Positions 3,543 to 42,931 of a DNA stretch of 64,000 bases are shown here, one piece after another. The notes beneath the pieces were generated by a model. It did not search any database. It worked only from the letters and a program-made list of their open reading frames with translations, and was not told where the DNA came from. The position numbers and the translations under genes were made by a program. The stretch comes from a virus: positions 1 to 64,000 of the IMG/VR virus record IMGVR_UViG_3300032236_001082; one strand, given 5' to 3'. Each line of letters opens with the position of its first letter. Positions within the stretch are counted from its first letter, which is position 1.

Positions 3543-5123
3543 TTATTTTACTTTTCTGCCTTCGCCTTTTCTAGCTCTACCGCTAACTGCTTCTTCTGGA
3601 GCGGCATTTCTAGTTTTATCCCTGGCTCTTGACTGAGTTGTTTGTGCCTGAATTTCGGCTGCCTTTGCTGCTGGGTCAAATACTTCGTCTCCAGAATCAA
3701 TAGGATTCATACCTAATCTCATTCTAACTTCGTTTGGCTTCAATACCTGAGTTGTCAAGTAAATCTGGTCAATTTGAGCCTGTGCCAATTCGTCAGTAAG
3801 AGTAAGTTCTTCAAACTTGAATTTAAACATATCAGTAAATTCTTTAATTATTTTATTAATTTGAATTTCTAGAGCATCTTGAGCAGGTCTTGTAACTTGC
3901 TCTTTAAAGATTTTATCGTCTAATGGGCTTGGGGTTCCATTACCTATTTTAGACAATGGGGTTCTATGTGCAATAAGGATACGATCTCTATTTTCTATAG
4001 CATAATTACTAAAGGATGAATCCTGAATTCCCGCCTCGACTGGCTCCATATTAAATTCAACACGAGCAGCATCGTTATCTGCTGGAAGGGGTATATAAAG
4101 GGTTCTATGGTTTCTGCCTTTTAAGCCAATCTGGAAGAACTCCAAAAGTTTTCTTTCTGAATCAGCGTTAAGACGTGCGCCTTTTGTTGTAATGATATAA
4201 CGAGGAACAGCCTTATTCTCAAAATAATCTAGATTATAACGTGAAGCAAATTCATCACCAGCAACTGCATTCTTTGCAGACAAGATATCTGGTACTCCAT
4301 AATATGTATTTGTTGGAGTATATTTTTTAAAATGAATAACTTCATTGGGACGAGGATCTGTGCCTATTTGGTCCTGTGTGGTCGTATCGCCAAAGTTTCT
4401 AAAGTAGGTATAGCGATTGTATACAACCTGCACGAAGCCGTCTCTATGCCGTCTTATACGCATTGTAATGGCAGGTATATGACCGATATAGCCAATCTCT
4501 CCCGCCGAAGTTCTACCAACTTCAAGATAACCGTTTCCAGTTGTTTCTAAATCTTTATAAACTTTGCGAAGAACCTCTTCAAATGAATCATCAGAGTTTA
4601 AGCTCTCTACTTTATCTCTCATCATGACTCTAGCACGTGAGATCTTTCTTCTAACCTTTTCTAATGCCTGCTCATCTTCTGAAGCATCTTCTAGTCTATC
4701 CAAAACTTTTTGAGTTTCAACAAATTTGTACCCCAGGCCAACTGTGTTAGAAACTTTTGCATCAATTGCTGCATGGTGATATGGAGAAACATCGTATAGT
4801 TGAGCCAAATACATAACGTTGTAAGGTGGCTGTACAATCTGGAATAAAGAGTAACCAGTTAAATCTAATGGGTCAAGCTTTTTTGATTTAGCATCTTCTA
4901 AGCCAGTATAAGCTTTTGCTAATTTACGAGAAGCATTTCTTTTAAAATTAGGATTAAGATTTTCAATCTTTAATAAATCTTCAGCCTTTGCTAAAAATGG
5001 ATCGTCAAAATCTGTTTCCTGAAGCTCACGAGCAGATGTGCCAAGTGCAGCACCTTCAATTTGCATTGAATAGCCTTTTGAGAAATCGTCATCATCGTCT
5101 GCTACTGTGGCTCTGTGTTCCAT
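3543..5123 (-). CDS. Portal protein (PBSX/HK97-like)
   Basis: DLETTGNGYLEV, EVIHFK..P...YYGVP, YFENKAVP, PNEVR..LG..P motifs. Confidence 0.92.
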   Translation of the reverse strand: MEHRATVADDDDDFSKGYSMQIEGAALGTSARELQETDFDDPFLAKAEDLLKIENLNPNFKRNASRKLAKAYTGLEDAKSKKLDPLDLTGYSLFQIVQPPYNVMYLAQLYDVSPYHHAAIDAKVSNTVGLGYKFVETQKVLDRLEDASEDEQALEKVRRKISRARVMMRDKVESLNSDDSFEEVLRKVYKDLETTGNGYLEVGRTSAGEIGYIGHIPAITMRIRRHRDGFVQVVYNRYTYFRNFGDTTTQDQIGTDPRPNEVIHFKKYTPTNTYYGVPDILSAKNAVAGDEFASRYNLDYFENKAVPRYIITTKGARLNADSERKLLEFFQIGLKGRNHRTLYIPLPADNDAARVEFNMEPVEAGIQDSSFSNYAIENRDRILIAHRTPLSKIGNGTPSPLDDKIFKEQVTRPAQDALEIQINKIIKEFTDMFKFKFEELTLTDELAQAQIDQIYLTTQVLKPNEVRMRLGMNPIDSGDEVFDPAAKAAEIQAQTTQSRARDKTRNAAPEEAVSGRARKGEGRKVK

Positions 5124-5829: not shown

Positions 5830-6675
5830 TTATTCCTTCATGTCAGCAAAAAATGTAGAAGCTAATTCATAGCCTTTTAGTCCAGACTCCTGCATAATCT
5901 TTACAGCTTCTGGTGTAAACTGAGGGTTTGGCTTTAAGGGCTCTAGCCACTTTTTAACAGCAGCTTCAGACTTATCTCCAATTTGCTCATAGTACTCTGG
6001 GGTTTTATAATTATAAAAAGTGCCAGGATTGTCAATCGCTTTTAATGAAAAATTAGAAAACGCATATCTAATTCCAGAAGTAATTTCTCTTACTCCATGT
6101 GAATATGGATCAAATGCTGAATGGATTACAACGTCGCCTTTTTCTGGTTTATATTCAAAACACTCTTTATTATTTATTAACTGCCAAGCATCTTTTATTG
6201 TTCCATCTGGATTAACGTCTGGGTAAAATATTGCCCCGCCCTCATAATCTCCAAAATAAGCAACGACTCCATAATCTAATTCGCAGCAGGTCTTATAAGT
6301 ATCTGTTTGCGAAAGCAAATGGCATGCGCCCTTGCCTGGGCTATCTGAGTGAACAAACATGCCATTATCTCCAGGCTTAGTTTTTAAAATAGAAGCGGAA
6401 GGGTGAATAACCCAATCTGGCCCAATTAAATCGCCGATCTGTTCCCATACATCAATTAACTTTGGAGGAAGACCTGTTCCTTTACCCTCATACCAATCAA
6501 TTAAATTTAAAGGAGATTCTAAAATCTCTTCTTGCTCTGCGTTTAAAAAATCTTCTACAGATTTTATTAAATCTTCGCTTATAAACTTTTTAAATATAAA
6601 TATACCACTTTTTGTTCCGTAAGCATCAGTAAACGGAGATGGATTTATACAATCGGGTCTGTCGTAAAATTTCAT
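5830..6675 (-). CDS. 2OG-Fe(II) oxygenase (prolyl-4-hydroxylase-like)
   Basis: HSD...DYEGG.I.Y...P.KGD.V...H.V..I.SG.RY. Confidence 0.85.
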   Translation of the reverse strand: MKFYDRPDCINPSPFTDAYGTKSGIFIFKKFISEDLIKSVEDFLNAEQEEILESPLNLIDWYEGKGTGLPPKLIDVWEQIGDLIGPDWVIHPSASILKTKPGDNGMFVHSDSPGKGACHLLSQTDTYKTCCELDYGVVAYFGDYEGGAIFYPDVNPDGTIKDAWQLINNKECFEYKPEKGDVVIHSAFDPYSHGVREITSGIRYAFSNFSLKAIDNPGTFYNYKTPEYYEQIGDKSEAAVKKWLEPLKPNPQFTPEAVKIMQESGLKGYELASTFFADMKE

Positions 6676-6693
6676 AATTCCTCCAAAATCTAA

Positions 6694-7341
6694 TTATATC
6701 ATATTAATAGAATTGGTTGAAGTATATCTAACCCCACTCAATATTGGCTTTACCTGATGAACAAATGAAGCTGGAAACATTATTAAGCTACCAGCTTTAG
6801 GTTTTATTGTTATATTATGATCTGGGAAGTACAGCTCTCCACCTTCATAATTTTCATTTAAATAAGTTACAGTAGTAAAAGCTAGATTTGAATGCTCATA
6901 GCTGCTATCGGAATGTGGTCCCATGTAAGAGTTTGCATTCCATTTTCTGACTGGCAGATAAGAAACATCAAGTTGATACTTTGCTGGATCTAACGACGTA
7001 TGCTGATTGATATATTGGTTATAACACATTTCAGCTGCCATTTTTAATGTATTAACAGTGTACAAAACTTTTTGATTTAGCTTTGGACTGTTGCTTTTAT
7101 TTTTTACAGTTTCTGAAAGAATCATTTTTGAGTAACCGTAAAGAACTGATGGGTTGTTGCTTGCAGTCCATTCTTGCCATTTTGGAATATTAGTATGAGA
7201 GTCTGGGTCCGTGTCCAAATTTTCTATTAATTTAATTAAATCTTCTGGATAGCTAATAACATTATCCCAATACCAGATATCGTCATTTAAAACTTCAAGA
7301 TCAAACATTACATACTGCTTTTTAAACTTTACGTCTTCCAT
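6694..7341 (-). CDS. 2OG-Fe(II) oxygenase (prolyl-4-hydroxylase-like)
   Basis: HSD...YLNENYEGGELYF...KPKAGSLIMFP..FVHQV.PI.SG.RY. Confidence 0.9.
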   Translation of the reverse strand: MEDVKFKKQYVMFDLEVLNDDIWYWDNVISYPEDLIKLIENLDTDPDSHTNIPKWQEWTASNNPSVLYGYSKMILSETVKNKSNSPKLNQKVLYTVNTLKMAAEMCYNQYINQHTSLDPAKYQLDVSYLPVRKWNANSYMGPHSDSSYEHSNLAFTTVTYLNENYEGGELYFPDHNITIKPKAGSLIMFPASFVHQVKPILSGVRYTSTNSINMI

Positions 7342-7342
7342 C

Positions 7343-8086
7343 TTATCCCTCTACTTCTTGTGCTGGGTACTGATAGCCCGTAGGAGCCAATCTAAGACCC
7401 TTTTCTCTAATGTCTTCCCATTCTACCGCCTGCTCTGCTTGCATGGCTCTAACCTCTGCTAGCTCCTTTGCCCAGGCATCCCTGGTTTCTTGTGGGTAGT
7501 CTGACTCTTCACGATCATCAAAAAATGAACCTATGGTATATCTAGTTGATTTTTTAACTATGTCTACCTTGTGCATATTAGAATGACCTCCATGGAATGT
7601 TGCAAGCATTCCAGTTTCTGGGAGAATTGTTAAATTATGTTGTGGGAAAACTAATTCCCCTCCCTCAAAATCATCATTTAGATATAAGAATGTTGCGTAG
7701 CGACTTCTTGTAAATGCTCCCATGACTCCATCATTTGAACTATTGTCTGAATGTTCTGGGGCAAATGCTCCTGGCAACCAACGCTGGGTATGAAAACTAA
7801 TTCTAGATAACTGAGGTTCAGGTATCCCAGCATTTTCAGCAGTAGCAACTCTAAACCTTTGATAAAGATCTGAAAACCAATTATTAGGCAAGCCAAATTC
7901 TGCTAGTATTGGATCGTTATCTTCTGGATACCCAGATGAATAAGATTCGTAAAAAGAAATTGGTTTCCAAAAATTTCCTCTTATTTCATCTAATTTATTT
8001 AACAGATCTATAGTTTTTTTAGCTTCTTCTTTTGTAATAAAGTTTTTATAAATAGTTAAATCTGTTAATAACTTTTCTTTTTCCAT
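7343..8086 (-). CDS. 2OG-Fe(II) oxygenase (prolyl-4-hydroxylase-like)
   Basis: HSD...YLNDDFEGGELVF...H.V....STRY. Confidence 0.9.
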   Translation of the reverse strand: MEKEKLLTDLTIYKNFITKEEAKKTIDLLNKLDEIRGNFWKPISFYESYSSGYPEDNDPILAEFGLPNNWFSDLYQRFRVATAENAGIPEPQLSRISFHTQRWLPGAFAPEHSDNSSNDGVMGAFTRSRYATFLYLNDDFEGGELVFPQHNLTILPETGMLATFHGGHSNMHKVDIVKKSTRYTIGSFFDDREESDYPQETRDAWAKELAEVRAMQAEQAVEWEDIREKGLRLAPTGYQYPAQEVEG

Positions 8087-8922
8087 TACATGGCTCCTGC
8101 ATCTTGAGGATAAGCTTCTTCATAACTTACTGGTTTTCCATCTTTAAAATAAATCATAGTTCTTTTATTATCAAATTCAATTCTTTCATTTTCCATCTTA
8201 GCCCACTTATAAGCTCCGTATTTACGTTGATTTGCAATCCATTCAGGAGATCCTTCGTAAGAATGCATAACAAAGTTTCTAACAAAGAATTTGTTTCCAG
8301 TAGGAATTGTTTTAACACCATGATAGAAGGGTTCTCCAGAAGGAAATACCATTAGGTCTCCCGCTTTTGGTTTATGGTTTGTAACATCTCCGTTAACCCA
8401 AAACTCAACATCTCCTCCATCATAATTATCATTAATATAAAAAGTACAAGTAGTGTGGAATTTAGGACCTGGCATATCTTTTTCAGACACAATAAAATCT
8501 GTATGGTACTGCATTGTCATCTTGTTCTTTAAAACATCAACATCATTAAAGTATTTACAGTAAGAATGTCCACTAAAATAAGCATCTTCTGGCAATGTTC
8601 TTTCTATGCTAATATTATTAAAATAATGAGAAATAGCTTTATCATAAGCAGTTCTGATTTCTTCATCTAAATCTTTTTCATCTTTAAATTGCTGCTCTAG
8701 TACATTAGTTAAAGAATTTCCGTCTTTAGGTTGTGAGTAGGTTCCAAATGCTGACCAAGGGGTCCAAGCAGAAAGATAATAATCTCCAGATGCAAGCTCT
8801 TCTGATTTACGCATAGTCTCATAGGCTTTTGTTGGATCTTTAAGCATATTTCTATAGCATATCACTCCTGGGTATATCTCATCCCACTCTAAATCATTTA
8901 CATCTGTTCTTAAGTTAATCAT
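8086..8922 (-). CDS. 2OG-Fe(II) oxygenase (prolyl-4-hydroxylase-like)
   Basis: HTD...YINDNYDGG...KPKAGDLMVFPS...YHGV....G.K. Confidence 0.9.
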   Translation of the reverse strand: MINLRTDVNDLEWDEIYPGVICYRNMLKDPTKAYETMRKSEELASGDYYLSAWTPWSAFGTYSQPKDGNSLTNVLEQQFKDEKDLDEEIRTAYDKAISHYFNNISIERTLPEDAYFSGHSYCKYFNDVDVLKNKMTMQYHTDFIVSEKDMPGPKFHTTCTFYINDNYDGGDVEFWVNGDVTNHKPKAGDLMVFPSGEPFYHGVKTIPTGNKFFVRNFVMHSYEGSPEWIANQRKYGAYKWAKMENERIEFDNKRTMIYFKDGKPVSYEEAYPQDAGAM

Positions 8923-8924
8923 AT

Positions 8925-9671
8925 TTACTCCTGCTCCTTATTAAATAATTGCTTGTACTCTTCAGATTCAAACCCGCCACGATAACCTGGAGGTGGCTGC
9001 TTTTCTCCAGTATGCTTTTTGATATTCCAAAAAAACGGAGAAGTGAATCTATTACCAGATTTTACTGGGCGGACTCCGTGTGTATAAAATCTATCTCCTG
9101 GAAAAAAGTAAGCTGATCTTGGTGTTGGTTTAAATTCAAGTCCATGCTGAGGGAAGTATAGCTCTCCGCCTTCGTAATCATCATTAAAATAAAAAAGGCT
9201 GGCTATGTCATAGTATGGGAAATCATTAGGTCTACCCTGCTCTGCTCCGATATGAAATTCTTTATCAGCATGTGGTTCTTGTCTTGCTCCTACAGGCCAT
9301 TTTACAATTGCTGGTCCTGTTGCTTCTACCTCTACTTCAAAAAACTTTTCTACTTCTATTTTTAATCTATCTATCATTCCATAAATTAATTTAAGTATTG
9401 AAGGGTCTGACTTCATGAGAGAATCATAAGTACAAACACGATCATCCCAGATACTTGCCTGATACAAAACCAATCCATCTTCGTCGTAGCTGTCCTGGGT
9501 TACATCCCAGACTTTGTTATTCAAAGCAAAATTCATAAGCCTTTGCTGCTCTTCTTCTGTTAAAAAGTCTTCTAGCTCAACTATGTTTGCGGACGAGTTG
9601 CCAAAAAATCCAGAAGGAGTTATTGAAGTGGGTCTATTTTGCACCCAACTATTAGAATTTGTTTGATTCAT
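8925..9671 (-). CDS. 2OG-Fe(II) oxygenase (prolyl-4-hydroxylase-like)
   Basis: HAD...YFNDDYEGGELYF...HGVRPVKSGNRF. Confidence 0.9.
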   Translation of the reverse strand: MNQTNSNSWVQNRPTSITPSGFFGNSSANIVELEDFLTEEEQQRLMNFALNNKVWDVTQDSYDEDGLVLYQASIWDDRVCTYDSLMKSDPSILKLIYGMIDRLKIEVEKFFEVEVEATGPAIVKWPVGARQEPHADKEFHIGAEQGRPNDFPYYDIASLFYFNDDYEGGELYFPQHGLEFKPTPRSAYFFPGDRFYTHGVRPVKSGNRFTSPFFWNIKKHTGEKQPPPGYRGGFESEEYKQLFNKEQE

Positions 9672-10362
9672 TTTGTTTTCTTTCTATTGTAAAAGACAGG
9701 CTATCTGCTTCATGTTTGCCTATTTTATTGCCTAAATGATCTAAAGCATTTTTATACCAATGCGTCAATCTTTTATTAATTCTACCATACTCAAACATAG
9801 CATCAATATAATTAGAATCGTGGACTCTATCTATACTCTCATCTGACAGTATTATTTTAGCATTATTTAAATTAGAAACGGATATTGGCAAAACAGAAGC
9901 AATTGGGGTGCCTGCTGGGATTTTAATTATTTTGCCTGGGCTAGTTACTCTCCAAACAACATGAAGGTTGCCAGTATAAAATGATGAAGACAATATAGTT
10001 GTAAAGCATTGGGCACCATCTATAAATTGATTGGGTACTGGCATTACTAAAAGACTAGAGTCTGGGCTTGTTTTAAATACTAAATTAGTAACAAATCCAA
10101 TCACTCCACCGCCTCGACCAAAAAAACAATAATCTTTTCCCTCAAGTACCTCAATATCTCCATCTTCTCCTTGTGCAGAACTACCGTTCCAAACAAATGA
10201 AATGTCTTGATCAAAAGATATTCCATAACCAAGTTTATTAGTTAAAGTTACTGGCGGGCAATGATAGCCATCTTTATTTTGGTTCATCCAATCACGACTA
10301 ACTTCTAAAGGAAAGATATTAGTTTTTAATCCATTAATTTCATAAACATTTACAGTATTCAT
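9652..10362 (-). CDS. DUF6065-family protein
   Basis: RDWM....YHCPP....N..GY, F.T, PVPN..IDG, W..T.P, GTPIA..LP pattern; paralog of next gene. Confidence 0.7.
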   Translation of the reverse strand: MNTVNVYEINGLKTNIFPLEVSRDWMNQNKDGYHCPPVTLTNKLGYGISFDQDISFVWNGSSAQGEDGDIEVLEGKDYCFFGRGGGVIGFVTNLVFKTSPDSSLLVMPVPNQFIDGAQCFTTILSSSFYTGNLHVVWRVTSPGKIIKIPAGTPIASVLPISVSNLNNAKIILSDESIDRVHDSNYIDAMFEYGRINKRLTHWYKNALDHLGNKIGKHEADSLSFTIERKQNESNKF

Positions 10363-11051
10363 TTAACATCCAAGTCAAACTTTTTAACCTGATGGTAACC
10401 TAATTTTTGACCTAAATGATTTGTTGCATTGCGATACCAATCAGTCCATTTTCCTTGATTATTGATTTCAGCTCCAATAGCTGAGTAGTCTGAATTATCA
10501 GCATCTGGCATTTTTGCGTTAGAGATATCATCAAATAATATTTCTGAATTGTTTATTTCTGACAAATTTAAAGGAACAATTGCGATTACTGGGGTATTAG
10601 CCTTGATAGTAATTTCAACATTTGGTCGTGTTATTTGCCAAGCCACTGGTAGCTCTTTACTATAAAAAGAAGTTGTCATTAAAATAGAAAATGGAGATAC
10701 TCCATCTCTTGGGTAATTAGGTACTGGCATTTGAAACAAAGTTGTATCTTCATTTGTTCTAAACATTATTCCAGTATTAAAACTAATGGTTGCATTTGCT
10801 CTACCAGGAGATGCGTATTTATGTCCAGATAAAACTTTTACATGGCCTGGGTTGGCATCTGAAATCCCGTCCCAAATAAAAGTAATATCTTCTGGGAAAG
10901 AAATTCCCCAACCCATCTGATTAGTTAGGCTTACTGGAAAACAATGGTAGGCATGGGCATTTTGAGTATTATCCATCCATTCTCTTTTTACAGAAAGTGG
11001 TGACAAATTAGCACAAATCTCGCTAACCTTATATGCCTTAACCAAACTCAT
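10359..11051 (-). CDS. DUF6065-family protein
   Basis: REWMD....AYHCFPVSLTNQMGW, MFRT, PVPNYPRDGV, WQITRP. Confidence 0.75.
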   Translation of the reverse strand: MSLVKAYKVSEICANLSPLSVKREWMDNTQNAHAYHCFPVSLTNQMGWGISFPEDITFIWDGISDANPGHVKVLSGHKYASPGRANATISFNTGIMFRTNEDTTLFQMPVPNYPRDGVSPFSILMTTSFYSKELPVAWQITRPNVEITIKANTPVIAIVPLNLSEINNSEILFDDISNAKMPDADNSDYSAIGAEINNQGKWTDWYRNATNHLGQKLGYHQVKKFDLDVK

Positions 11052-11732
11052 CTACTTACCTTGCTCAACCCATCTTTGTCTCATCTGCATGAATTCATCA
11101 TTATGAGCATGGTCATTATAATCAAGCATTGTTACAATAGAATACTTTTGACCACTTTGGACTGGCTCAGCTACGTGAGAAAATAAATATGTTGAAGGGA
11201 ATATATAAAGATCTCCCGCTTGTGGTTTTATCTTTAGATCAAGCTTAGGGAAAGTTAGTTCCCCGCCTTCATAATCATCATTTGGATAACCAACTAAAGA
11301 AACAGTTGCACTGTAAGAAAATCCGTGGTCAGCATGCTCTTTAAAATGTTGGCCTGGGCCATACTTGATGCAATTCATGACTTCCCAATAATCCATTTTT
11401 ACAGAATACCTATTGCAGTAGTCTAAAGCTGGACCAGATTGAATATACTTTAAGTCTCTCCATAGATTAAGAACTTCTACCTGAGTATTATTAACTGGGT
11501 TTAAAACTTCATTAATTTTAATATCTTTGCAGTCTCTATAGCCTTGATTTACTGTTGAGTATCCAACAGAAGCTTCTTGCCAAAAATATCTAGCGTCATG
11601 CTCTTGTTGAGCTAATCTGCCAATGTTTTCTAGTCTATTTAAGATGTTTAATTCTTTCTTAAATACATTTCGATATACCCAAATCCCATGAAACAAATGT
11701 TCTTGAGATGTCCAAGTAGGTTGATTATTCAT
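11052..11732 (-). CDS. 2OG-Fe(II) oxygenase (prolyl-4-hydroxylase-like)
   Basis: KY.PGQHFKEHAD...NDDYEGGEL.F...FPS...SH.A.PV.SG.KY. Confidence 0.9.
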   Translation of the reverse strand: MNNQPTWTSQEHLFHGIWVYRNVFKKELNILNRLENIGRLAQQEHDARYFWQEASVGYSTVNQGYRDCKDIKINEVLNPVNNTQVEVLNLWRDLKYIQSGPALDYCNRYSVKMDYWEVMNCIKYGPGQHFKEHADHGFSYSATVSLVGYPNDDYEGGELTFPKLDLKIKPQAGDLYIFPSTYLFSHVAEPVQSGQKYSIVTMLDYNDHAHNDEFMQMRQRWVEQGK

Positions 11733-11782
11733 TTTCTCTTTCCTATCTATTATTTACAAATTATATCAATTAAAAATTTAAT

Positions 11783-12790
11783 TTAAAAGGTTACAATTCT
11801 TGGAGGTTCAAATCTAATATCATAAGCGTGTCTATAACCAATCTCTGCATCCATCTTGTCAAAGTTAGGCATATATTCACACCATTTTTTATTAAGACCA
11901 CTAAAATCACAATAAGCCAAAACTTTTTCAAGAGGAATTCCGCCACGGCCAGATAACAAATCATTTAATTTTAACATTGTTTCATCAGACTGTTTCCAAA
12001 AAGCTTCTTTATGCTGATCTGTCCATGGTCTTCTTGTTGCAGACAACATTTCAAAATTATTTTCTGGGTATTCTTTTCTTGTATCGTGTAAATACAAAAT
12101 TTTAGGTGTTGCAAACATTCTCCAACCAGAACACCAAGTCTTTACAGTAATATAAATTTCTTCAGCTTGATAGTTGATATCATCTTCAAAAGGCAACTCA
12201 TCAAAATAAGCTCTTTCACCAAAAACATAACTAGCTTGAAAATAAACAGCTTCATGAACATCTCCATCATTAGGGACTGGGACAATATCTGGCCAACCAT
12301 GTCCTGGGATATATCTATCTGCATCCAACTTTTGATGGTAAAGACTCATGGTTCTTCCAGTAGAAACATCTTCCACCTTTAAAGATCCATCTTGGTTAAA
12401 TTCAAACTCTGGTCCACAAAAAGCTAATATAGCTTTCCCGTCAGAAGTTTTAGCTTTTGCTTTGTCTAACTCTATAAAAGATTCAGCATCCCAATTTTTT
12501 GTAAACAAATTGTGTCCACAAGTTACAAGAACATGGTCATATTCAAAATCATTTTCCATAGTCCTTGCTCTTGACCACAAAACTCCTCTAAATTCGGACA
12601 AATCGTACTTCTTGTAAAGTAATTGATTTTCTGGAATAAAGCTTAAATCAGCATGAAGATCATCAGAATATTGTTCTGAGACTATAGAGAAAAATAGATT
12701 CTCTGGATTCTTAGCATTTTCATAACAGCTTCTTACAGATTCAGCAAGCTTTTTTTCTCTATACGCAACCATAGAAACTAATATTTTCAT
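11783..12790 (-). CDS. GT-A glycosyltransferase, GT60/Skp1-Hyp GlcNAc-transferase-like
   Basis: ILVSMVAYRE (cf. IFVSIASYRD), A.NPENL, GV.WSR, H..F..NWD, EEI..T...W..GW..F.......H. Confidence 0.72.
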   Translation of the reverse strand: MKILVSMVAYREKKLAESVRSCYENAKNPENLFFSIVSEQYSDDLHADLSFIPENQLLYKKYDLSEFRGVLWSRARTMENDFEYDHVLVTCGHNLFTKNWDAESFIELDKAKAKTSDGKAILAFCGPEFEFNQDGSLKVEDVSTGRTMSLYHQKLDADRYIPGHGWPDIVPVPNDGDVHEAVYFQASYVFGERAYFDELPFEDDINYQAEEIYITVKTWCSGWRMFATPKILYLHDTRKEYPENNFEMLSATRRPWTDQHKEAFWKQSDETMLKLNDLLSGRGGIPLEKVLAYCDFSGLNKKWCEYMPNFDKMDAEIGYRHAYDIRFEPPRIVTF

Positions 12791-12791
12791 T

Positions 12792-13514
12792 TTATTTATT
12801 TAACCTTTTCATAATAACAGCTTCGGTATCATACGAGCTGTGACAGTCACACATTTGATCTTTTGGGACTTCTGGTTTAGATATTGTACCAGTTTTTAAA
12901 TAATAACGAACATCCCCGTCTAAAGCATATTTCTTAAAATTATCTTCTATTTCTTTTTCATTTTTAGATTGAGCAAACCAATGGTCTGGGGTAACAAAAT
13001 GCAAGAATAATAAAGTAATATAAGAATCTTCATCATCTACAGGATATTCTGGTCTACCATGTACTTGCTGTTGACCATAAAATACTATAGCTGAATTTTC
13101 TTCTTCAGTATAAGTTTGACCATCAACAATCAATCCCCACTCTAAATTATTTTTTTCTATACAAACATCTATAGTTATTTGACAGGCATATTGATCCATA
13201 TGGGGCCACAAATTTGGAACTACCCCGTCTTTTTTTTGATATCTTGAAATAAAGTAATAAGCTTTTTGGATATCATCCCTGCCTACTATTTGTTTTGCTT
13301 TATTTAAAATAACTTGTTCCGTATCTGCATCAAACTCTATACCAGATTCCCATCTTCCTAAAGTAGTATGATATTTATGATTTTGATCTACACCTAATCC
13401 AATGGACAATACTTTATTTTTAATTAAACTAAATGTACCAAGATCAAACAAGCCATCAATTTTTGATGGCCTGTTTGGTTCTGACAATTTAAATCTTATT
13501 GGATCTAAATTCAT
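12792..13514 (-). CDS. Divergent 2OG-Fe(II) oxygenase-like protein
   Basis: Y...G..L.PHMD....T.D......W.L.V......AIVFYG....HGR; start overlaps FN3-gene stop. Confidence 0.7.
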   Translation of the reverse strand: MNLDPIRFKLSEPNRPSKIDGLFDLGTFSLIKNKVLSIGLGVDQNHKYHTTLGRWESGIEFDADTEQVILNKAKQIVGRDDIQKAYYFISRYQKKDGVVPNLWPHMDQYACQITIDVCIEKNNLEWGLIVDGQTYTEEENSAIVFYGQQQVHGRPEYPVDDEDSYITLLFLHFVTPDHWFAQSKNEKEIEDNFKKYALDGDVRYYLKTGTISKPEVPKDQMCDCHSSYDTEAVIMKRLNK

Positions 13515-14680
13515 TAATCTTGATTCTTGTCTGTAAGTTCCTCTTCAACAGCTTTTTTAATTGTTGCGCTGCCTGGTACTGGGAACACTTTGAACCCTGG
13601 TGGCGAGAAGAAGCCTGGAGGGCTGAAGAACCCTGGAGGGCTGAAGAACCCTGGAGGGCTGAAGAACCCTGGTGGCGAGAAGAAGCCTGGAGGGCTGAAG
13701 AACCCTGGAGGGCTGAAGAACCCTGGAGGGGCAAAGAACCCTGGTGGCGAGAAGAAGCCTGGAGGGCTGAAGAACCCTGGTGGGGCAAAGAAGCTTGGTG
13801 GTTGAGATGTAGCAGTGTTAGATGCTGCAGAGTAGTTACCAGTTCCATTTTGGTTAACTGCTGATATTTGATAAGTATTTGAGTTACCAGCAGTTTCTGC
13901 AAATGTGTAAGGGCTTGATGTTACTCCAGGAACTACTGTTCCTAAATTATCTTTGATATTATATGAAGTAATTGCATATCCACCATTTGCTGGAGCCGAG
14001 AATGTAACAATTTCTGAGTTTGTTCCATTAGAAGCAGTTGGTGCTGATGGTGTGTCTGGAACTGTTGTAGCGGTAATTGAATTAGATGCAGTTGAAGCTG
14101 CAGAGGTTCCATTTGCATTTGTAGCTGTCATTGTAAATGTATAGCTGGTTGCAGAGGCTAATCCAGTAACTGTGATTGGAGATGATGTTCCTGTTCCAGT
14201 TTGAGAACCGCTTGAAGTTACTGTATAACCAGTAATTGCAGATCCACCTGTTGCTCCCGCTGTAAACGGTACAGTAGCTGCTCCGTTATTAAAGGCACGG
14301 TTTAAACCAACATCGGATACTGAACCTACTACTGGGGCTTGTGGGACTGTAGTTGCTGTAATTGACCCTGATGTTGTTGATGGTCCTGAACCATATGAAT
14401 TTGAGGGGACAACTGTAAATGTATAAGAAGTTGCAGAAGCTAAACCAGTAAACTGGTAAGATGTTGATGATGTTGTTTGTGTTGTAGTTGCTGGTGTAGA
14501 AGTTATTGTATATAGTGTTGCTGCTATAGAGTTGCTTGGCAATGACCAAGATAAATTAGCTGCTCCGTTATTATAAGCTCTTCCTGTTCCTACGTCTGAT
14601 GCCGTTAATCCTGTTACTGCCAACGGCGCAACATGTTGATCTTGACCATCTGCTGAAAATCTACCTGCTTGTTTTGACAT
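13514..14680 (-). CDS. Fibronectin type III repeat virion protein with C-terminal PPGFFS tandem repeat
   Basis: Three FN3-like units (LSW, YTI/YTV, TGL.....YTF.V...N..G) followed by 12 hexapeptide repeats. Confidence 0.85.
   Translation of the reverse strand: MSKQAGRFSADGQDQHVAPLAVTGLTASDVGTGRAYNNGAANLSWSLPSNSIAATLYTITSTPATTTQTTSSTSYQFTGLASATSYTFTVVPSNSYGSGPSTTSGSITATTVPQAPVVGSVSDVGLNRAFNNGAATVPFTAGATGGSAITGYTVTSSGSQTGTGTSSPITVTGLASATSYTFTMTATNANGTSAASTASNSITATTVPDTPSAPTASNGTNSEIVTFSAPANGGYAITSYNIKDNLGTVVPGVTSSPYTFAETAGNSNTYQISAVNQNGTGNYSAASNTATSQPPSFFAPPGFFSPPGFFSPPGFFAPPGFFSPPGFFSPPGFFSPPGFFSPPGFFSPPGFFSPPGFFSPPGFKVFPVPGSATIKKAVEEELTDKNQD
13586..13801 (-). repeat. Coding 18-nt tandem repeat x12 (PP[G/S]FF[S/A], last unit PPGFKV) with 72-nt higher-order period
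   Basis: Variant GGCGAGAAGAAG recurs at 13602, 13674 and 13746. Confidence 0.95.
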
Positions 14681-14716: not shown

Positions 14717-17700
14717 TTATGCTGACAAATCACCGAAGAGTAGCCATGTGTTGGCTGCTGTCTTCATAATTGTTGCAACAGAACCTGTAGTTCTAAGCTT
14801 TAATCCTGGTGTTGACAAAATTGTTACACCAGCACCTGCTGCAAATGCTGCTCCAGTTCCTGAAGACTGATAGAAGTCAACGGATGTTCCAATTGGAGCT
14901 GTATTTGTTCCGTCTGGAGCGATTGTAAGAGTGTAAGCTCCTGCAATTGGCACCATCTGATCACGATATTGTGATGGGTAGTAAGTTCCATTTGAAGCAG
15001 CAACTGCTGTTGCAATTGTTGTAATTGATGGAACTGCTGCAACTGTCTGGATTGAACCATCTGAGAAGGTTATACCAGCAGAAGGAAGAGTAATTACTGG
15101 TGCGGTCAAAGTCTTATTTGTAAGAGTCTGTGAACCAGTTAATGTAGCTACTGTTGAATCTATAGCAATTGTAACTGCACCTGAACCATCAAATGATGAT
15201 CCTGAAAGTCCCGTTCCAATTGTAAGAGCATTTGTAGTAGATGCTTTTACAGTAATTGCTGCAGAACCATCGAATGCTACACCGTTAATATTACGAGCTG
15301 TGGCAAGCTTGGTTGCTGTGTCAGCATTACCAACTACTGCACCAGTGTGTGTTCCTGCTGTGTTGCCAGTCAAAGGACCAGTAAATGTTCCTGTAATTGT
15401 TTTATTTGTTAATGTTTGAGCTGTATTTAAGTCTACTGTTGTAGCAGTATCAATTGATAGCGTTGTTCCATTCTTTGACAAACCTGTACCAGCAAGTATT
15501 GCTTGAGCTGCGTTAAACTGAACATAGTTAATGTTATCTGTTCCAATTGCAACCGTTCCTGTGTTTGAAAGAATAAATCCTGTGCTGCCATAAAGAGTAC
15601 CAGAAGTAACAAAGTTAAAGTCTCCTCCAGCCATCTCTCCATTTGGATTGTTATCATCATCTGTTGCACGAGTTAATACCCAAGGAGCAGAAGATGAACC
15701 AACTGTTGTAAGTGTGTAAATACCATTTTGTTTTGCATCTGTCTGAGCTCTTACAAGAATTCTATCGCCTACTGAGAATCCTGAAATACCGTCTACAGTG
15801 CTAAATGCACGGTTTGTATCGGCTGTAAGGGTAGCTCCATATCCTGCTGTTCCATTTGAATATGTTGTAGAAAGATTTGCAGTTGTTGCAACTTTAGTTG
15901 CTGCGTGGAAGTTAATTCCTGAAGCTACGCCATCTACATAAAGCTTTGTTGCTGCATGTAGATCTGAAGTTGGAGCTCCAGCAAGAGTAAGTGTTCCTGT
16001 CATTGTTCCGCCAGCTAAAGATAACTTAGCATCAAGTGCTGTTTGAGTAGCTGTTGAGACTGGCTTGTTAGCATCAGATGTGTTATCTACGTTACCAAGA
16101 CCAACCATTGACTTTGTAATACCAGAAACTGTTCCAGTAAATGTTGGTGAAGCTAAAGGAGCTTTGGCAGCTAATGCTGTGTCAAGTCCTGAAATCTTAG
16201 ATGTTGCTATTGCAGCTGATGAAGAAATATCAGCGTTAACAATTGTTCCATCTGCAATCATTGTAGAAGTAACTGTTCCAGTATCTGTTGTTTTTACAAC
16301 GTTTGCTGTTGCAGTTGAAATTGCTGAGTTACGGTTGGTAACTTCTGTTGCAATCGCAGAATCTGTATAGGCTTCAGATGTGGAAATCGCTGCTGCTTTA
16401 GCAGTATCTGTATATCCTTCTGCAGTTGTTAATGATGTTGCAATTGCTGCATTTCTATTTGTAACTTCTGTTGAAATTTTACCATCAGTATAGGTTTCTG
16501 AGGTAGTGATTGCATTTGTAACGGCTGTTGCACGGTTAGTAGCTTCTGTGCTTACTGCGTTGTCTGCATATGTTTTTGTGGCAAGTGCTGATGTATCAGA
16601 AATGCCGTGAACATTTGTTGTTGCAGCAATATGATTTGAAGAAGTTGTTAATTGTGGTTGAATGCTTGCTGTTACTCCATGTACATAACCTAATTCTGTA
16701 GAAGTAGTTGTACCAATACTTGTTGTAGCTGGTAGTACCACAGTTCCGCTAAATGTTGGGCTATCTAGATTAGCTTTGAGTCCAAGAGCAGTATTTAATC
16801 CTGTTACTTGATCTTCTGTAATGCTAATAATTCTGTCTCCAGAAATACTTGCTACAGCAATTTTACTTCCGTCAACATCTGCAATCTGAAGATTGTGGAT
16901 GGTTCCGCTTGTAATCTTGGTACCGTCAACAGTTCCGTTTTTAAGAACTATACCGTCCAAAGAGCTTTCGCTTGCTGTTATTGTTCCCGTAAATGTAGGA
17001 GCAGATTTTGTTGCATATATTCCTGCTGCATTTGAAGCTGCAAGGCTAATTGCAGATGCTTTAGCTGAATCTGTGTAGGTATTTGCAGATGTAAGTGTTG
17101 TTTGATCATTTGTATCTACATAAGCTTTTGTAGCAGCATCTGTATTAAGTGTTGGGGTAGCTAAATCTTTTACTTTGTGTCCGCCCATTGCTAGGTCACC
17201 AGACATTGTATCTCCAGCCTTTGCAACTTTACCAGATACGGTAGTTGCAAGAGCGGAAGCAGTGCTTTCATCAGTAGCAAAGTGATCTGCTATCTCCCTA
17301 AGAGTATCAAGTGCAGCTGGGGCACCGTTAATAAGGTTAGAAATCGCTGTATCAGTGTAGCCTTCAGCTGTTGAAATAGCTTCTATCTTTTTAGTATCAG
17401 CATATGATTCTGATGTTGTAATAGCTTGAGATTTGGCTGTTGCAATTTCAGTTGTAATAGTTGCGTGAAGAGCAGTATCTGCTGTTGTAGCAAAATCTTC
17501 TGCTTGGCTTAAGGTATCAACGCTTTTTGAAGAAATTGCAGTATTTCTATTTGTAACTTCAGTTGATATAGCTGCATCTGTATAGTTTTCTGCAGTTGTA
17601 ATTGCATCTGATATATCTGTAGATGTTTGTGAAGCTAATCCAGATAAATCTGCAGCATCTGCTGCTGTATATCCAAGGGCATGGTTAACATCATAAGCAG

Positions 17701-17914
17701 TAAGATCTGTTCCGAGCCCAGTTGCAATTGCAGCTTGAAGCTGAGCTGGGGTAATTGTTGCATATCCTAGTGCGGTCCATGTTGATGTACCATCACCAAC
17801 TTTAATTTTCTTTGTGTCTGACTCATAGCCAGCTTCGCCTGCTGCCAGGACGGGATTTACGGAAGTCCAATCTGCTGCTGTACCTCTACGTAGTTGAATT
17901 CTTACTGTTGACAT
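14717..17914 (-). CDS. Long tail fibre / receptor-binding protein with Mtd-N-like N-terminus
   Basis: RIQLRRGTAADWTSVNPVLAAGE.GYE.DT..IK.GDG; AATK.YVD, LGNVDNTSD..KP, P.FTGTV fibre repeats. Confidence 0.85.
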   Translation of the reverse strand: MSTVRIQLRRGTAADWTSVNPVLAAGEAGYESDTKKIKVGDGTSTWTALGYATITPAQLQAAIATGLGTDLTAYDVNHALGYTAADAADLSGLASQTSTDISDAITTAENYTDAAISTEVTNRNTAISSKSVDTLSQAEDFATTADTALHATITTEIATAKSQAITTSESYADTKKIEAISTAEGYTDTAISNLINGAPAALDTLREIADHFATDESTASALATTVSGKVAKAGDTMSGDLAMGGHKVKDLATPTLNTDAATKAYVDTNDQTTLTSANTYTDSAKASAISLAASNAAGIYATKSAPTFTGTITASESSLDGIVLKNGTVDGTKITSGTIHNLQIADVDGSKIAVASISGDRIISITEDQVTGLNTALGLKANLDSPTFSGTVVLPATTSIGTTTSTELGYVHGVTASIQPQLTTSSNHIAATTNVHGISDTSALATKTYADNAVSTEATNRATAVTNAITTSETYTDGKISTEVTNRNAAIATSLTTAEGYTDTAKAAAISTSEAYTDSAIATEVTNRNSAISTATANVVKTTDTGTVTSTMIADGTIVNADISSSAAIATSKISGLDTALAAKAPLASPTFTGTVSGITKSMVGLGNVDNTSDANKPVSTATQTALDAKLSLAGGTMTGTLTLAGAPTSDLHAATKLYVDGVASGINFHAATKVATTANLSTTYSNGTAGYGATLTADTNRAFSTVDGISGFSVGDRILVRAQTDAKQNGIYTLTTVGSSSAPWVLTRATDDDNNPNGEMAGGDFNFVTSGTLYGSTGFILSNTGTVAIGTDNINYVQFNAAQAILAGTGLSKNGTTLSIDTATTVDLNTAQTLTNKTITGTFTGPLTGNTAGTHTGAVVGNADTATKLATARNINGVAFDGSAAITVKASTTNALTIGTGLSGSSFDGSGAVTIAIDSTVATLTGSQTLTNKTLTAPVITLPSAGITFSDGSIQTVAAVPSITTIATAVAASNGTYYPSQYRDQMVPIAGAYTLTIAPDGTNTAPIGTSVDFYQSSGTGAAFAAGAGVTILSTPGLKLRTTGSVATIMKTAANTWLLFGDLSA

Positions 17915-28083: not shown

Positions 28084-28701
28084 ATGCAGCCTAAAATTAT
28101 TGAAAACTTTATAAATAAAGAAACTTGCAATTACATCATGTCTTATATGGCAAAACCTTATACGCTTGATGAAAAGGGTAAACGTATAATTCACGTAAAT
28201 GAAGAAAGTGGAGAAAATGCTGTATGTATGGGTTGGTATCCAGAGATTGAAACTTTTTTAAAAACTTTAAAAAAAGAAAATCTTCAGAATTCTTTAATTT
28301 ACGATTTATTTAATTTAATTGGTCAAAATATGTGTAGCGTTTTTGATTTTAAACAATCAGAAGTAATATACGAAACTTCTCATTATAAATATTTTGGCTC
28401 AGAGCAAATTGGCGATAGCTTTGGTTCAGAAAAAGACGGAGAAAATGGTCAGCTTCCTCACACGGATCAATATGGTATGGATGGACAAATCTATACAGCA
28501 GTATTATATTTAAATGATGAATATGTGGGCGGAGATGTAATTTTTTACGAAAATAACGATGAGTCAAAGCCAACAAGATATAGAATGAAAGCTGGTTCAT
28601 TAATGTATTTTAGTGGTCTTGACTTGCATGCGGTAGAAAATGTGACTGCTGGTAAAAGAGCGTCATTTGTTTTGCATATTAGAGTTAAAGAGAAAAATTA
28701 A
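28084..28701 (+). CDS. 2OG-Fe(II) oxygenase
   Basis: HTD...YLNDEYVGG...H.VE.VT.G.R. Confidence 0.88.
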   Translation: MQPKIIENFINKETCNYIMSYMAKPYTLDEKGKRIIHVNEESGENAVCMGWYPEIETFLKTLKKENLQNSLIYDLFNLIGQNMCSVFDFKQSEVIYETSHYKYFGSEQIGDSFGSEKDGENGQLPHTDQYGMDGQIYTAVLYLNDEYVGGDVIFYENNDESKPTRYRMKAGSLMYFSGLDLHAVENVTAGKRASFVLHIRVKEKN

Positions 28702-35508: not shown

Positions 35509-36540
35509 ATGAACAACACCGCTCATAAATCAGAAGTAGAGAATGGTTCTGTATCATTCGCTCTTGTTGATTCCCGCTCTAATCCTGCATGGCACTCTTA
35601 TGCGAATAAGATTTTTGATGCAGATACAGAAACCCCGACAGTATCAGAAATTATGGATGCTGCTAAACTATCTAATTGGAATGTATCTCTTGAGCCTGTC
35701 TCAGAATTGGTTCCAGATTATACAATGGTAACAGAATCTTATCTTGTTACACGTGACAATCCTTATACAGCAGGACAGAAAGATGTTTTGTCCGTCGTAG
35801 GCTCACGCTACAAGGCTGTACAGAATGAAGATTTGTTTGCGTTTGCACAAAATCTTCACGATTCTAACCCTGATGTCAAAATTGACAGTGCAGGTTCTTT
35901 CAAGAATGGTCGTGTAGTTTATGGCTCTTGGTCAATCCCTAATCAACTTGTGCTTGACCCACAAGGTGCTAACGATGCAACTAATTTGTATCTTGTTGTT
36001 CATACGTCACACGATGGCTCGGTAGCGATTCAAGCAGGAATTACACCTGTGCGTGTTAAGTGCCAGAATACACTTAACTTTGCAATGAAACGTGCTAAGC
36101 AATCTTTCAAGATTCGACACACCGCAACAGTGGATGGAAAAATTGCTGCTGCACGTGAGGCTCTAGGAATGTCGGTTGCGTACTTTGATGAGTTCTCTAA
36201 GCAAGCAAACGAATTGTTTGAGCGTGAGGTTACTAACTCTCAATTCTCAAAAATCATCAACACACTTTATCCTAAGCCTGAGAGTGACTCTAAGGGTGCT
36301 ATCACTAAGTGGGAAAATAAGGTTGTCCTGCTTGATGAGTTGTACCACAACTCTCCTACTAACGCTAATATCAAGGGTACAGCGTGGGGCGTTGTTAATG
36401 CTCTCACCGAACGCCTAGACTATTATCGTACAGCCCGCAAGGGTGGCGAATCACTCGCTTATTCTGCTAGCGGATTTGACCCCGTTATCACAGCAGAAAA
36501 AAATAAAATTGTTAAGCAGGTTCTTTCACTAACCGCTTAA
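35509..36540 (+). CDS. DUF932 / TIGR03299-type phage-plasmid protein
   Basis: PAWH, VVGSRY..VQN...F, SAGS...GR, SHDGS, TPVRV.CQNTL, IRHT, GTAWG..NA.TE..DY. Confidence 0.85.
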   Translation: MNNTAHKSEVENGSVSFALVDSRSNPAWHSYANKIFDADTETPTVSEIMDAAKLSNWNVSLEPVSELVPDYTMVTESYLVTRDNPYTAGQKDVLSVVGSRYKAVQNEDLFAFAQNLHDSNPDVKIDSAGSFKNGRVVYGSWSIPNQLVLDPQGANDATNLYLVVHTSHDGSVAIQAGITPVRVKCQNTLNFAMKRAKQSFKIRHTATVDGKIAAAREALGMSVAYFDEFSKQANELFEREVTNSQFSKIINTLYPKPESDSKGAITKWENKVVLLDELYHNSPTNANIKGTAWGVVNALTERLDYYRTARKGGESLAYSASGFDPVITAEKNKIVKQVLSLTA

Positions 36541-36545
36541 TAAAT

Positions 36546-36577
36546 TGGGAGGGCGAAAGCCCTCCCACTCTTTTTTT
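36546..36577 (+). terminator. Intrinsic terminator
   Basis: TGGGAGGGC-GAAA-GCCCTCCCA followed by a T-tract. Confidence 0.85.
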
Positions 36578-36822
36578 ATTTGGAGGATCATGTCAGCTCG
36601 AATTGTAATATGTAATAAATGTAAAAAAGAAATTGAAGTGCGATCAAAATTTGCACACGACACTTTAAATAATCACTTGACAAAATGCAAATAATTTGGC
36701 GCGGGTAGAGCGGTCATATCTTTTCTAAAAAGTCAATTACGATAGAGGTAAAAATCTCCCTGGAATATAGACAAAACCTGATCATATGTCCAAGCTTTAC
36801 GATCAAACAAGTATATGCTGTA

Positions 36823-36852
36823 TGGACAAATGTCAGTGGGGTATGGTATTAT
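36823..36852 (+). promoter_or_regulatory. PafBC/RecA-NDp-type promoter
   Basis: TGGACA then TGTCAG-N10-TATTAT. Confidence 0.7.
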
Positions 36853-42464: not shown

Positions 42465-42692
42465 TCATTTATCGCCAAAGTCGTTCTTATGTTCGTATTG
42501 CAATGGTGTTAGTTTCATTATTTCTTCTTTTAGCCGTTTGTTCTCAAGCTGTAGGTATGTGTAATGGAGTTGATTACCACTTAAAGCATCTGGAGTTTTG
42601 TCCTTCAGCTTCTCTTCATAATAATGAATCGCTGCCACAATAAACAAAGTCAAGAAAGCACAATAAACTAATAATACTGACTGCATTACCAA
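42465..42692 (-). CDS. Small membrane-anchored coiled-coil protein
   Basis: N-terminal hydrophobic helix. Confidence 0.5.
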   Translation of the reverse strand: MVMQSVLLVYCAFLTLFIVAAIHYYEEKLKDKTPDALSGNQLHYTYLQLENKRLKEEIMKLTPLQYEHKNDFGDK

Positions 42693-42931
42693 ACCTCATC
42701 AACATTAAACTCAGGCTTAGGATTATCCCTTTCGTACATAATACCTTTAAGGTATACGCAAAGGTCCAAAGCTTCCTCGTAAGCGTCCTGTAGCATGTCT
42801 CTGCCGTTGTATGCCTGCAAGCCAGTGCCATACCGCTCTATGCCCAATTCAAGGCGTTTTGCCATATCTTCTATGACCATCTTCTGCAAGATCGGATTGC
42901 CGTTTATAGTTGGAATTGGTTGCTCTGTCAT
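42686..42931 (-). CDS. Conserved phage protein (all-alpha NTP-pyrophosphatase-like)
   Basis: R...G..RYGT.L...NGRD.L.DAYEEALD...YL. Confidence 0.55.
   Translation of the reverse strand: MTEQPIPTINGNPILQKMVIEDMAKRLELGIERYGTGLQAYNGRDMLQDAYEEALDLCVYLKGIMYERDNPKPEFNVDEVW

Follow-up and report, generated by a model that had tools for sequence, protein, structure and literature searches.

Prolyl-hydroxylase-type oxygenase genes accompany a Pro-Phe repeat gene in the tail-fibre module of an uncultured lake phage and its relatives

What do the oxygenases act upon that are encoded one after another between the tail-fibre gene and the portal gene of an uncultured lake phage? The stretch in question (the window) is the whole of the DNA analysed, 64,000 nucleotides, i.e., positions 1 to 64,000 of IMG/VR virus record IMGVR_UViG_3300032236_001082; the record itself is 112,158 bp long, has direct terminal repeats and is rated complete, and the window is its first 64 kb. 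On the minus strand, eleven genes lie between the two structural genes, their start and stop codons abutting or overlapping, and the first of them encodes an FN3 protein that ends in a Pro-Phe repeat. Our answer is that the Pro-Phe tails of two tail-module proteins, this one and a second one further along the record, are probably substrates of the phage's own prolyl-hydroxylase-type oxygenases. The argument is built on the adjacency and order of the genes, their recurrence and co-absence across viral contigs, a collinear sister genome that has neither, a second pairing of repeat and enzyme genes in the same genome, the type of the enzymes, an enzyme content that follows the type of repeat, and a precedent in the virus PBCV-1. 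Judged from sequence comparison, there is good support for a link between the enzymes and the repeat.

The open reading frame (ORF) map gives the following order from 13514-14680 on: the FN3-repeat gene, a 240-residue ORF, a glycosyltransferase (GT) gene, the oxygenase gene ox226, two DUF6065 genes, and the oxygenase or oxygenase-like genes ox248, ox278, ox247, ox215 and ox281. With the genes at either border, the features are as follows.

14717..17914, minus strand: tail-fibre protein of 1065 residues (Pfam Mtd_N PF18454 at the N-terminus, E 4e-16; PHROG tail-fibre families)
13514..14680, minus strand: FN3 protein of 388 residues with a C-terminal Pro-Phe repeat, the candidate substrate (PF00041, E 2e-16)
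13586..13801, minus strand: the repeat, residues 294-365, 11 x PP(G/S)FF(S/A) followed by PPGFKV (codon-by-codon listing)
13514-13585, minus strand: VFPVPGS and acidic tail after the repeat, common to the genome's second repeat protein (paralogue comparison)
12792..13514, minus strand: 240-residue ORF resembling Syn9 gp54, lineage-specific at this position (H105-x-D107...H152-x-R154 invariant in 15 homologues)
11783..12790, minus strand: glycosyltransferase, PF11397 (GT60-type, "GlcNAc"; E 1.1e-15; 58.5 bits, cut-off 21)
11052..11732, minus strand: ox226, which leads the core enzymes and adjoins the repeat gene in most related loci (PF13640, E 4e-13)
10359..11051, minus strand: DUF6065 protein a (PF19541, E 1.4e-31; Cys37 invariant)
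9652..10362, minus strand: DUF6065 protein b, a paralogue 37-39% identical to a (PF19541, E 1.1e-21)
8925..9671, minus strand: ox248 (PF13640, E 7e-7; H134, D136, H198 and R208 invariant)
8086..8922, minus strand: ox278 (PF13640, E 2e-8; H140, D142, H201 and K211 invariant)
7343..8086, minus strand: ox247 (PF13640, E 2e-8; H112, D114, H172 and R182 invariant)
6694..7341, minus strand: ox215 (PF13640, E 5e-12; H143, D145 and H195 invariant, R205 nearly so)
5830..6675, minus strand: ox281, oxygenase-like, present in part of the clade only (PF13640, E 0.011, 17 bits, below cut-off)
3543..5123, minus strand: portal protein, the downstream border of the module (phrog_12, E 1e-52)

A preliminary description of this stretch, made from the letters alone, had put the block between a fibre gene and the portal, as the Mtd_N domain at the N-terminus of the fibre protein confirms, and had pointed to tight junctions at 13514 (a 1-nt overlap), 12790/12792, 11051/11052, 10359-10362 (a 4-nt overlap) and 8086, all of which the ORF map reproduces. 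Its FN3 call likewise stands. It had also proposed that the FN3 product is a virion decoration protein, a label that is at most putative; the gene context is that of a tail-fibre module. Most related loci also have a homologue of the fibre gene ahead of their repeat gene.

The repeat had been counted as twelve units of PP(G/S)FF(S/A); eleven of these are full hexads (residues 294-359), and the twelfth, PPGFKV, is partial. TRF finds an 18-nt period with 10.7 copies in the repeat DNA, together with a 72-nt super-period at 96% identity, and the Ser in hexad position 6 is written with both AGC and TCG codons, which argues that the protein sequence and not the DNA alone is being maintained. When the PPxFFxPP pattern was looked for at the DNA level, it was found 19 times in the genome, at the two repeat genes only, and not once in the sister genome G001 or in the Synechococcus cyanophage Syn9. 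Given this confinement to two genes, the repeat is not a chance feature. A collagen-like reading was tried and dropped: the hexad PPGFFS does have Gly or Ser at every third position, but relatives have Leu, Val or no residue there and show periods of 3 or 4 residues.

A protein search restricted to the tail retrieved a family of FN3 proteins with PPxFFx tails, and the repeat types among relatives comprise PPxFFx, PPFF, pure PFF, PP[HY]F and, in locus L133, PPVYYN. In the pure-PFF relatives the last 100 residues consist solely of Pro and Phe. A Hint-like domain of about 160 residues, of the kind that begins with Cys and has HN-type residues at its end, follows the repeat in 36 of 91 non-identical repeat proteins, where matches to Intein_splicing stay below threshold. 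The window protein stops 23 residues past its repeat and has no Hint- or intein-like C-terminal domain, and in other relatives the protein closes with a Cys-rich knot or a short tail of the form [SG]RFIR[AS]Y; at L013:2409-3323 and in several short tails, Cys-rich, knot-like ends (e.g. GGCSGCARSYCWQACPSCCGSCGC) stand in place of the Hint domain.

Does the company of cassette and repeat extend beyond this genome? Viral contigs were scanned with three queries (the FN3 protein and alignments of DUF6065 and of the portal), which together yielded 199 distinct new loci, all annotated with one script; at least 593 viral stretches were matched in the DUF6065 scan alone. The core, made up of the fibre gene, the repeat protein gene, five oxygenase orthogroups, DUF6065 and the portal gene, occurs in several hundred viral contigs in a conserved order: fibre, FN3-repeat, ox226, one or two DUF6065 genes, ox248, ox278, ox247, one to three ox215 genes, sometimes ox281, then about 4 kb and the portal. 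Among 80 non-redundant cassettes, 63 have an ORF with a Pro-aromatic repeat within 3 kb upstream and the other 17 are cut by the contig end; none of the 80 has at least 2.5 kb of upstream DNA and no repeat ORF. The expectation that the enzyme set would co-occur with FN3 genes bearing PPxFF-type repeats is thus strongly borne out (63 of 63 testable loci).

The portal gives a view of the same association that includes genomes lacking the cassette. Among non-redundant relatives of the portal with 9 kb or more of DNA upstream, 39 have both cassette and repeat, 17 have neither, none has the repeat only and five have the cassette only; four of these five are cut, and the fifth, L154, has a short PPPIYTPVYIPPPVHIP tail, a Pro-rich variant. 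On a quick portal tree, the cassette/repeat state changes at least seven times, and four of five independent contrasts agree in direction, with none opposed. Enzyme content was also expected to follow the repeat sequence, and it does so in the number of ox215 paralogues: loci with PP[FHY]F-type repeats, which fall in two separate portal clades, have two or three of them (usually three), and loci with PPxFFx-type repeats have one, apart from three loci that have two. The Pro-Tyr variant of L133 and the NYP/collagen-like variant of L130 likewise adjoin oxygenases of this kind. These two loci have some further peculiarities. At L133:170-967, the FN3 protein has the (PPVYYN)n repeat and a Cys-rich end and is followed by two unrelated ORFs and then by ox226- and ox248-like oxygenases, with no DUF6065. 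The portal relative at L130:1-7600 encodes a 739-residue protein with Tyr-Pro repeats of the (A)TNYP type, after which come a PF11397-like GT, two DUF6065-like ORFs, an ox226-like oxygenase and a collagen-like G-X-T/S protein.

A clean contrast comes from G001, the record behind locus L129, rated complete at 101,703 bp and with terminal repeats. Its genes are collinear with those of the window's genome (portal 79% and major capsid protein 89% identical; 81 of 175 ORFs in common), and G001 has no DUF6065 gene, no ox226-like gene, no PF13640 match and no repeat. The window's genome, by comparison, has 13 PF13640 matches and two repeat proteins. The second of these, outside the window at 90783-93140 of the full record, has 785 residues and a tail in which eight full hexads of PPGFF(T/A/S) and an incomplete ninth one, PPGFAV, precede the same VFPVPGS-acidic end. 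After this gene, the second locus (L209, 87000-98000) encodes an oxygenase (PF13640, E 3e-15) and a GT of another family (GT61, PF04577, E 3e-10), as well as a JmjC-like ORF (a weak JmjC_2 match, E 0.0037) and a weak second 2-oxoglutarate (2OG) oxygenase ORF. A repeat gene with an oxygenase and a GT therefore occurs twice in one genome, with different GT families, and both sets are missing from the sister genome; we regard this as the best argument for a functional link. The remaining 2OG oxygenase paralogues are scattered, within the window at 28084-28701 (plus strand), 42928-43890 (minus strand) and 43933-44475 (minus strand), and past it at 66101-66793, 70317-71427, 74672-75469, 76286-77233, 88.1 kb and 90.2 kb. 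They occur alone or as pairs among conserved genes, and each falls into a gap of the collinear map with G001, which lacks it.

The enzymes themselves belong to the P4H-type (prolyl 4-hydroxylase) Fe(II)/2OG family and, by their sequences, have intact catalytic residues. Five ORFs (ox226, ox248, ox278, ox247 and ox215) score 30.6-50.4 bits against PF13640, above its curated cut-off of 27 bits. The preliminary description had counted five further P4H-like oxygenases after the DUF6065 genes, which holds for ox248, ox278, ox247 and ox215; ox281 falls below the cut-off, its profile aligns to that of ox226 with a probability of 87% in hhalign, and H109-x-D111...H193 and R203 are conserved in its eight orthologues. 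An HxD...H triad had been ascribed to all of these enzymes and to the DUF6065 proteins. It is present in all seven oxygenase-like ORFs, and in six orthogroups it is at least 95% conserved (n = 60-73 non-identical sequences with a median identity of 45-73%; n = 8 for ox281), but the two DUF6065 proteins lack it. In ox226 the invariant residues of the ortholog alignment are H133, D135, H186 and K196, and a basic residue, of the kind that binds 2OG, stands ten positions after the distal His in each of the six orthogroups (K196, R208, K211, R182, R203, and R205 in ox215), the position of Lys493 in collagen P4H.

Searches of solved structures with profiles built from 19-25 orthologues each place most of these enzymes near hydroxylases of protein prolines. 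The nearest solved structure to ox226 is the Bacillus anthracis P4H (E 5e-7), with the PBCV-1 P4H (5c5t) at E 0.026; ox248 matches P4H (4e-6) and P3H1 (2e-5), ox247 is nearest to prolyl 3-hydroxylase 1 (E 7e-9), and ox215 matches a PKHD hydroxylase (7e-8) and the PBCV-1 P4H (1.7e-6). Matches of ox278 are weak (0.05). That the enzymes are P4H-like is thereby upheld, the nearest solved relatives being prolyl 4- or 3-hydroxylases for four of the five core orthogroups.

The two DUF6065 proteins appear to be something else. An AlphaFold model (pLDDT 87) folds into a dUTPase-like barrel, with VIA Z values of 8.1-10.3 to 13 chains, nearly all of them dUTPases, and a Foldseek E of 5e-4, while the sequence profile has no match to solved dUTPases at E values up to 10. 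The set of invariant residues (R23, W25, Y35, C37, N44, R84, N112 and H220) appears to differ from that of dUTPases. On the strength of the model, we describe DUF6065 as having a dUTPase-like fold and as not being an oxygenase. Its profile also matches Syn9 gp43 (E 1.5e-6). A complex prediction of DUF6065 with the repeat tail scored 0.00 and speaks neither for nor against binding.

The 240-residue ORF had been put down as an oxygenase in the preliminary description, and this call is partly sustained. There is no Pfam match to the ORF and nothing consistent from Pfam on its 15 homologues, hhalign finds no similarity between its profile and those of ox226 and ox215, the solved-structure search gave no match, the structure model is unusable (pLDDT 40), and the ESM Atlas offers only leads to PF13640 and HalD clusters at 0.90-0.91. 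On the other side, the HxD...HxR residues are invariant, and the profile matches Syn9 gp54 (E 7.9e-8), a protein classed as a classical 2OG dioxygenase (PMC2938197). For these two reasons and no other, we call the ORF a probable divergent 2OG oxygenase and annotate it as putative.

The GT gene had been described as GT60-like, in which it was right: PF11397 is matched above cut-off, and all 70 GT homologues have the domain as well. A search of solved structures with it gave no match. It lies outside the conserved core, as a lineage-specific addition, and adjoins the repeat gene only in the window's own lineage (the window and L001/L002), in L124 and in L212. Loci with a GT might have been expected to differ in the Ser/Thr content of their repeats, but a comparison across loci does not support such a link.

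As for the host, a WhiB-family gene in the window (51148-51321, minus strand; PF02467, E 6.5e-11, above cut-off) and a portal that shares about 50% identity with Streptomyces phage portals point to an actinobacterium. Some related contigs are in Lake Mendota bins of metagenome-assembled genomes (MAGs), and the MAG bins that hold the module conflict in taxonomy. A scan of genome contigs gave only short MAG contigs with the module (L210-L216), in bins labelled Bacteroidetes, Lishizhenia, Acidimicrobiaceae, Flavobacteriales, Luteolibacter and Beijerinckiaceae; these are probably mis-binned phage DNA and uninformative on the host. Against cultured phages, megablast of the block and tblastn of DUF6065 gave no match, and tblastn of the metagenomic repeat protein P0017 gave only FN3 matches, in Listeria phages; these searches thus produced no cultured model phage. 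A scan for promoters and terminators showed no excess over shuffled expectation. One promoter-like site (TTTAAA-16-TATAAT with a TG upstream) lies at 11760-11787 on the minus strand, in the 50-nt gap between the GT gene and ox226, in a scan that is at chance level overall. Among sequencing runs listed for this DNA there is no RNA data set, and the only run listed may be the source sample.

Several known systems invite comparison. In the Skp1 pathway of Dictyostelium and Toxoplasma, the prolyl 4-hydroxylase PhyA acts first and the GT60 enzyme Gnt1 follows. The preliminary description had drawn this analogy, which holds as a resemblance in enzyme pairing (a P4H-type oxygenase with a PF11397/GT60-type GT, and the logic of hydroxylating and then glycosylating) and goes no further: the pathway concerns one proline of one protein, whereas the window has no Skp1, its GT has CGH for DxH and is missing from most cassettes, and the acceptor may equally well be Ser or Thr. 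In plant extensins and other hydroxyproline-rich glycoproteins, 2OG oxygenases hydroxylate Pro-rich repeats, O-glycosylation follows, and stiff, extended rods result; the collagen of mimivirus is modified by the virus-encoded hydroxylase-glycosyltransferase L230. Unlike the case at hand, these involve Ser-Pro4 or Gly-X-Y repeats with hydroxylysine, other GT families, and eukaryotes or a giant virus. Bacterial clusters of a beta-hydroxylase and a sulfotransferase with collagen-like or tail-collar proteins as predicted substrates (PMC2938197) are similar in that the substrate was predicted from a repetitive or phage-tail-type protein beside the hydroxylases; they differ in enzyme families and repeats and in being bacterial. 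Two loci in our set, L062:171-1428 and L076:1-1339, have two extra ORFs before ox226 that by eye are sulfotransferase-like (HLHIPRTSG) and like a cupin of the Asp/Asn beta-hydroxylase type (HVDGG...H), and these ORFs recall the bacterial clusters.

Two systems come closer. Syn9 (NC_008296; our L217) has a tandem dioxygenase array, gp41-gp54, which in 2010 was the subject of an in silico study by Iyer, Abhiman, de Souza and Aravind, who assigned no substrate and proposed secondary-metabolite synthesis (PMC2938197). Similar to the window, the array combines tandem classical 2OG dioxygenase families with a dUTPase-fold protein that has a conserved Cys, and both arrays follow tail-fibre genes. In contrast, two tryptophan halogenases and a JmjC protein of the MINA type occur in Syn9, and none of these is found among the ORFs of 5830-14680. 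Within 36054-36842 and 42602-43144 of Syn9, the RefSeq labels look wrong ("ferrochelatase" for gp54, and "DNA endonuclease V" or "minor coat protein" for genes of dioxygenase families), and phrog_2954, phrog_2297 and phrog_274 seem to bear the same labels and so to mislabel genes of the window. The second system is the chlorovirus PBCV-1, whose P4H hydroxylates virus-type (PAPK)n repeats, as stated in a passage of PMC3634087 that cites Eriksson 1999. It shares with the window's phage a small, monomeric P4H-type oxygenase encoded by a virus together with proteins that have short Pro-rich tandem repeats. PBCV-1, however, is a eukaryotic virus with one enzyme, unlinked to a defined substrate gene, and a Pro-Ala-Pro-Lys repeat, whereas the window's phage has five to seven oxygenases and DUF6065 in an operon with the candidate substrate gene, and a Pro-Phe repeat. 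An enzyme array (Syn9) and a viral P4H with viral repeats (PBCV-1) are thus already known. New from this window are the two glycosyltransferases, the CGH variant, the second locus and the all-or-none contrast with a complete sister genome.

Syn9 also suggests another account of the block, namely that the array and DUF6065 make or tailor a small molecule or a non-ribosomal or secondary metabolite, or remodel the host envelope, and that the repeat gene is a neighbour only by way of a hypervariable island beside the fibre genes. Iyer et al. read the Syn9 array in this manner (PMC2938197); Syn9 has gp43 and gp54, relatives of the proteins discussed above, yet no Pro-Phe repeat; many oxygenase paralogues lie far from any repeat gene; and some relatives add sulfotransferase-like, carbamoyltransferase-like or SDR-like genes. 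Set against this are the content of the block, in which all ORFs are assigned and none is a peptide synthetase, a halogenase or a precursor-supply gene, the protein prolyl hydroxylases that are the nearest solved relatives, the strict adjacency at 63 of 63 testable loci, and the second repeat gene with an oxygenase and a GT of its own, all of it missing from the sister genome. We consider a small-molecule product unlikely. It is rather improbable, in turn, that the oxygenases act on other proteins, be it the tail fibres or host translation factors and ribosomal proteins in the manner of bacterial and eukaryotic enzymes of the PHD/OGFOD1 type, with the Pro-Phe tail as an unmodified structural or hydrophobic element. 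PF13640 does include enzymes of the PKHD/PiuC and PHD types, the Syn9 array and the window array both come after tail-fibre genes, and scattered paralogues lie among early and replication genes; but such targets account neither for the joint gain and loss of cassette and repeat, nor for an enzyme content that follows the repeat type, nor for an oxygenase and a GT beside each of two repeat genes. Very improbable is modification of nucleotides or DNA, with base hydroxylation like that by Tet/JBP, a dUTPase-fold protein and a GT as in hypermodified phage DNA. The dUTPase-like fold of DUF6065, the presence of a GT and a weak Tet_JBP match of ox248 (E 0.014, below cut-off) fit such a system. DUF6065, however, has no sequence match to solved dUTPases and apparently has other conserved residues, with the invariant Cys37, the oxygenases match PF13640 and prolyl hydroxylases and not Tet/JBP, the block lies in a late structural operon, and most cassettes have no GT.

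Several points nevertheless weigh against the proposal that the enzymes act on the repeat. Its gene adjoins the cassette, so that joint gain or loss may be a single recombination event, and with five pairs the sign test on the independent contrasts is underpowered (p = 0.125). The 177 kb of Syn9 contain no Pro-Phe repeat. This distant relative of the array thus touches on what the preliminary description had named as a refutation, a cassette without a Pro-rich partner, which occurs nowhere among the testable cassettes of the clade. About nine scattered paralogues lie in non-structural regions and cannot be argued for from adjacency, and the pure Pro/Phe repeats offer two types of residue to five or six enzymes. 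The GT does not have the metal-binding DxH/DxD motif of GT-A enzymes: it reads C91-G92-H93 where L124, L029 and L130 read DSH, DSH and DAH, so that the canonical aspartate of DxH is missing. CGH is kept in 70 of 71 GT homologues, down to 44% identity, which argues for a conserved variant and not for a decayed gene. Finally, the support is comparative, and we infer from it that the repeat is the substrate.

If the repeat is the substrate, the system might work as follows. Late in infection, in the host cytoplasm, the oxygenases would hydroxylate prolines of the repeat. The PPG triplet is the classical target of collagen P4H, and the PPG in each hexad could be such a target here; some enzymes may act on Phe too, and each orthogroup may take its own position or stereochemistry. 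In this lineage, the adjoining GTs (GT60-type here, GT61 at the second locus) would add a sugar to hydroxyproline or to the Ser or Thr in hexad position 6, and DUF6065, with its dUTPase fold and invariant Cys, would be an obligatory partner. The tail would become stiff and extensin-like, hydroxylated and in part glycosylated, on a protein associated with the tail fibre, and would probably serve adhesion or assembly. The modified residues, the sugar step and the function of the tail are all matters that we infer. A wider picture is rather doubtful in its full extent and is offered as such: freshwater actinophages may possess a dedicated system of several enzymes for tailoring a protein, by which a Pro-Phe polymer borne on the fibres becomes a material like extensin or mussel adhesive, dense in hydroxyl groups and, in some lineages, glycosylated as well. 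The chemistry could include products not known from phages, namely 3- and 4-hydroxyproline and hydroxylated Phe, DUF6065 could be a new Cys-dependent tailoring enzyme or a chaperone based on the dUTPase fold, and the Hint domains could process or ligate the tails of relatives.

The proposal is directly testable, since the candidate substrate is in the same operon, its simple repeat can be synthesised, and the sister phage provides a natural negative control. Our literature searches retrieved no paper that ties phage oxygenases to a Pro-Phe repeat or to hydroxyproline in phage structural proteins, and none on DUF6065, and the only detailed earlier description of a phage dioxygenase array, that of Syn9, named no substrate (PMC2938197). 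Phages of aquatic habitats widely carry genes for P4H-like 2OG oxygenases; prolyl 4-hydroxylase-like genes are counted among the most abundant auxiliary metabolic genes in a virome study of the Baltic Sea, and the role of viral P4H has been called "cryptic" in a virome study (PMC9301287). If true, the proposal would, as far as the literature searches show, describe the first phage structural protein to be hydroxylated by enzymes and glycosylated through the hydroxyl groups, and it would add a new repeat material (Pro-Phe), a role for DUF6065, and position-specific peptide hydroxylases that may be useful in biocatalysis. It would also name a class of substrate for the prolyl 4-hydroxylase-like genes of aquatic viromes.

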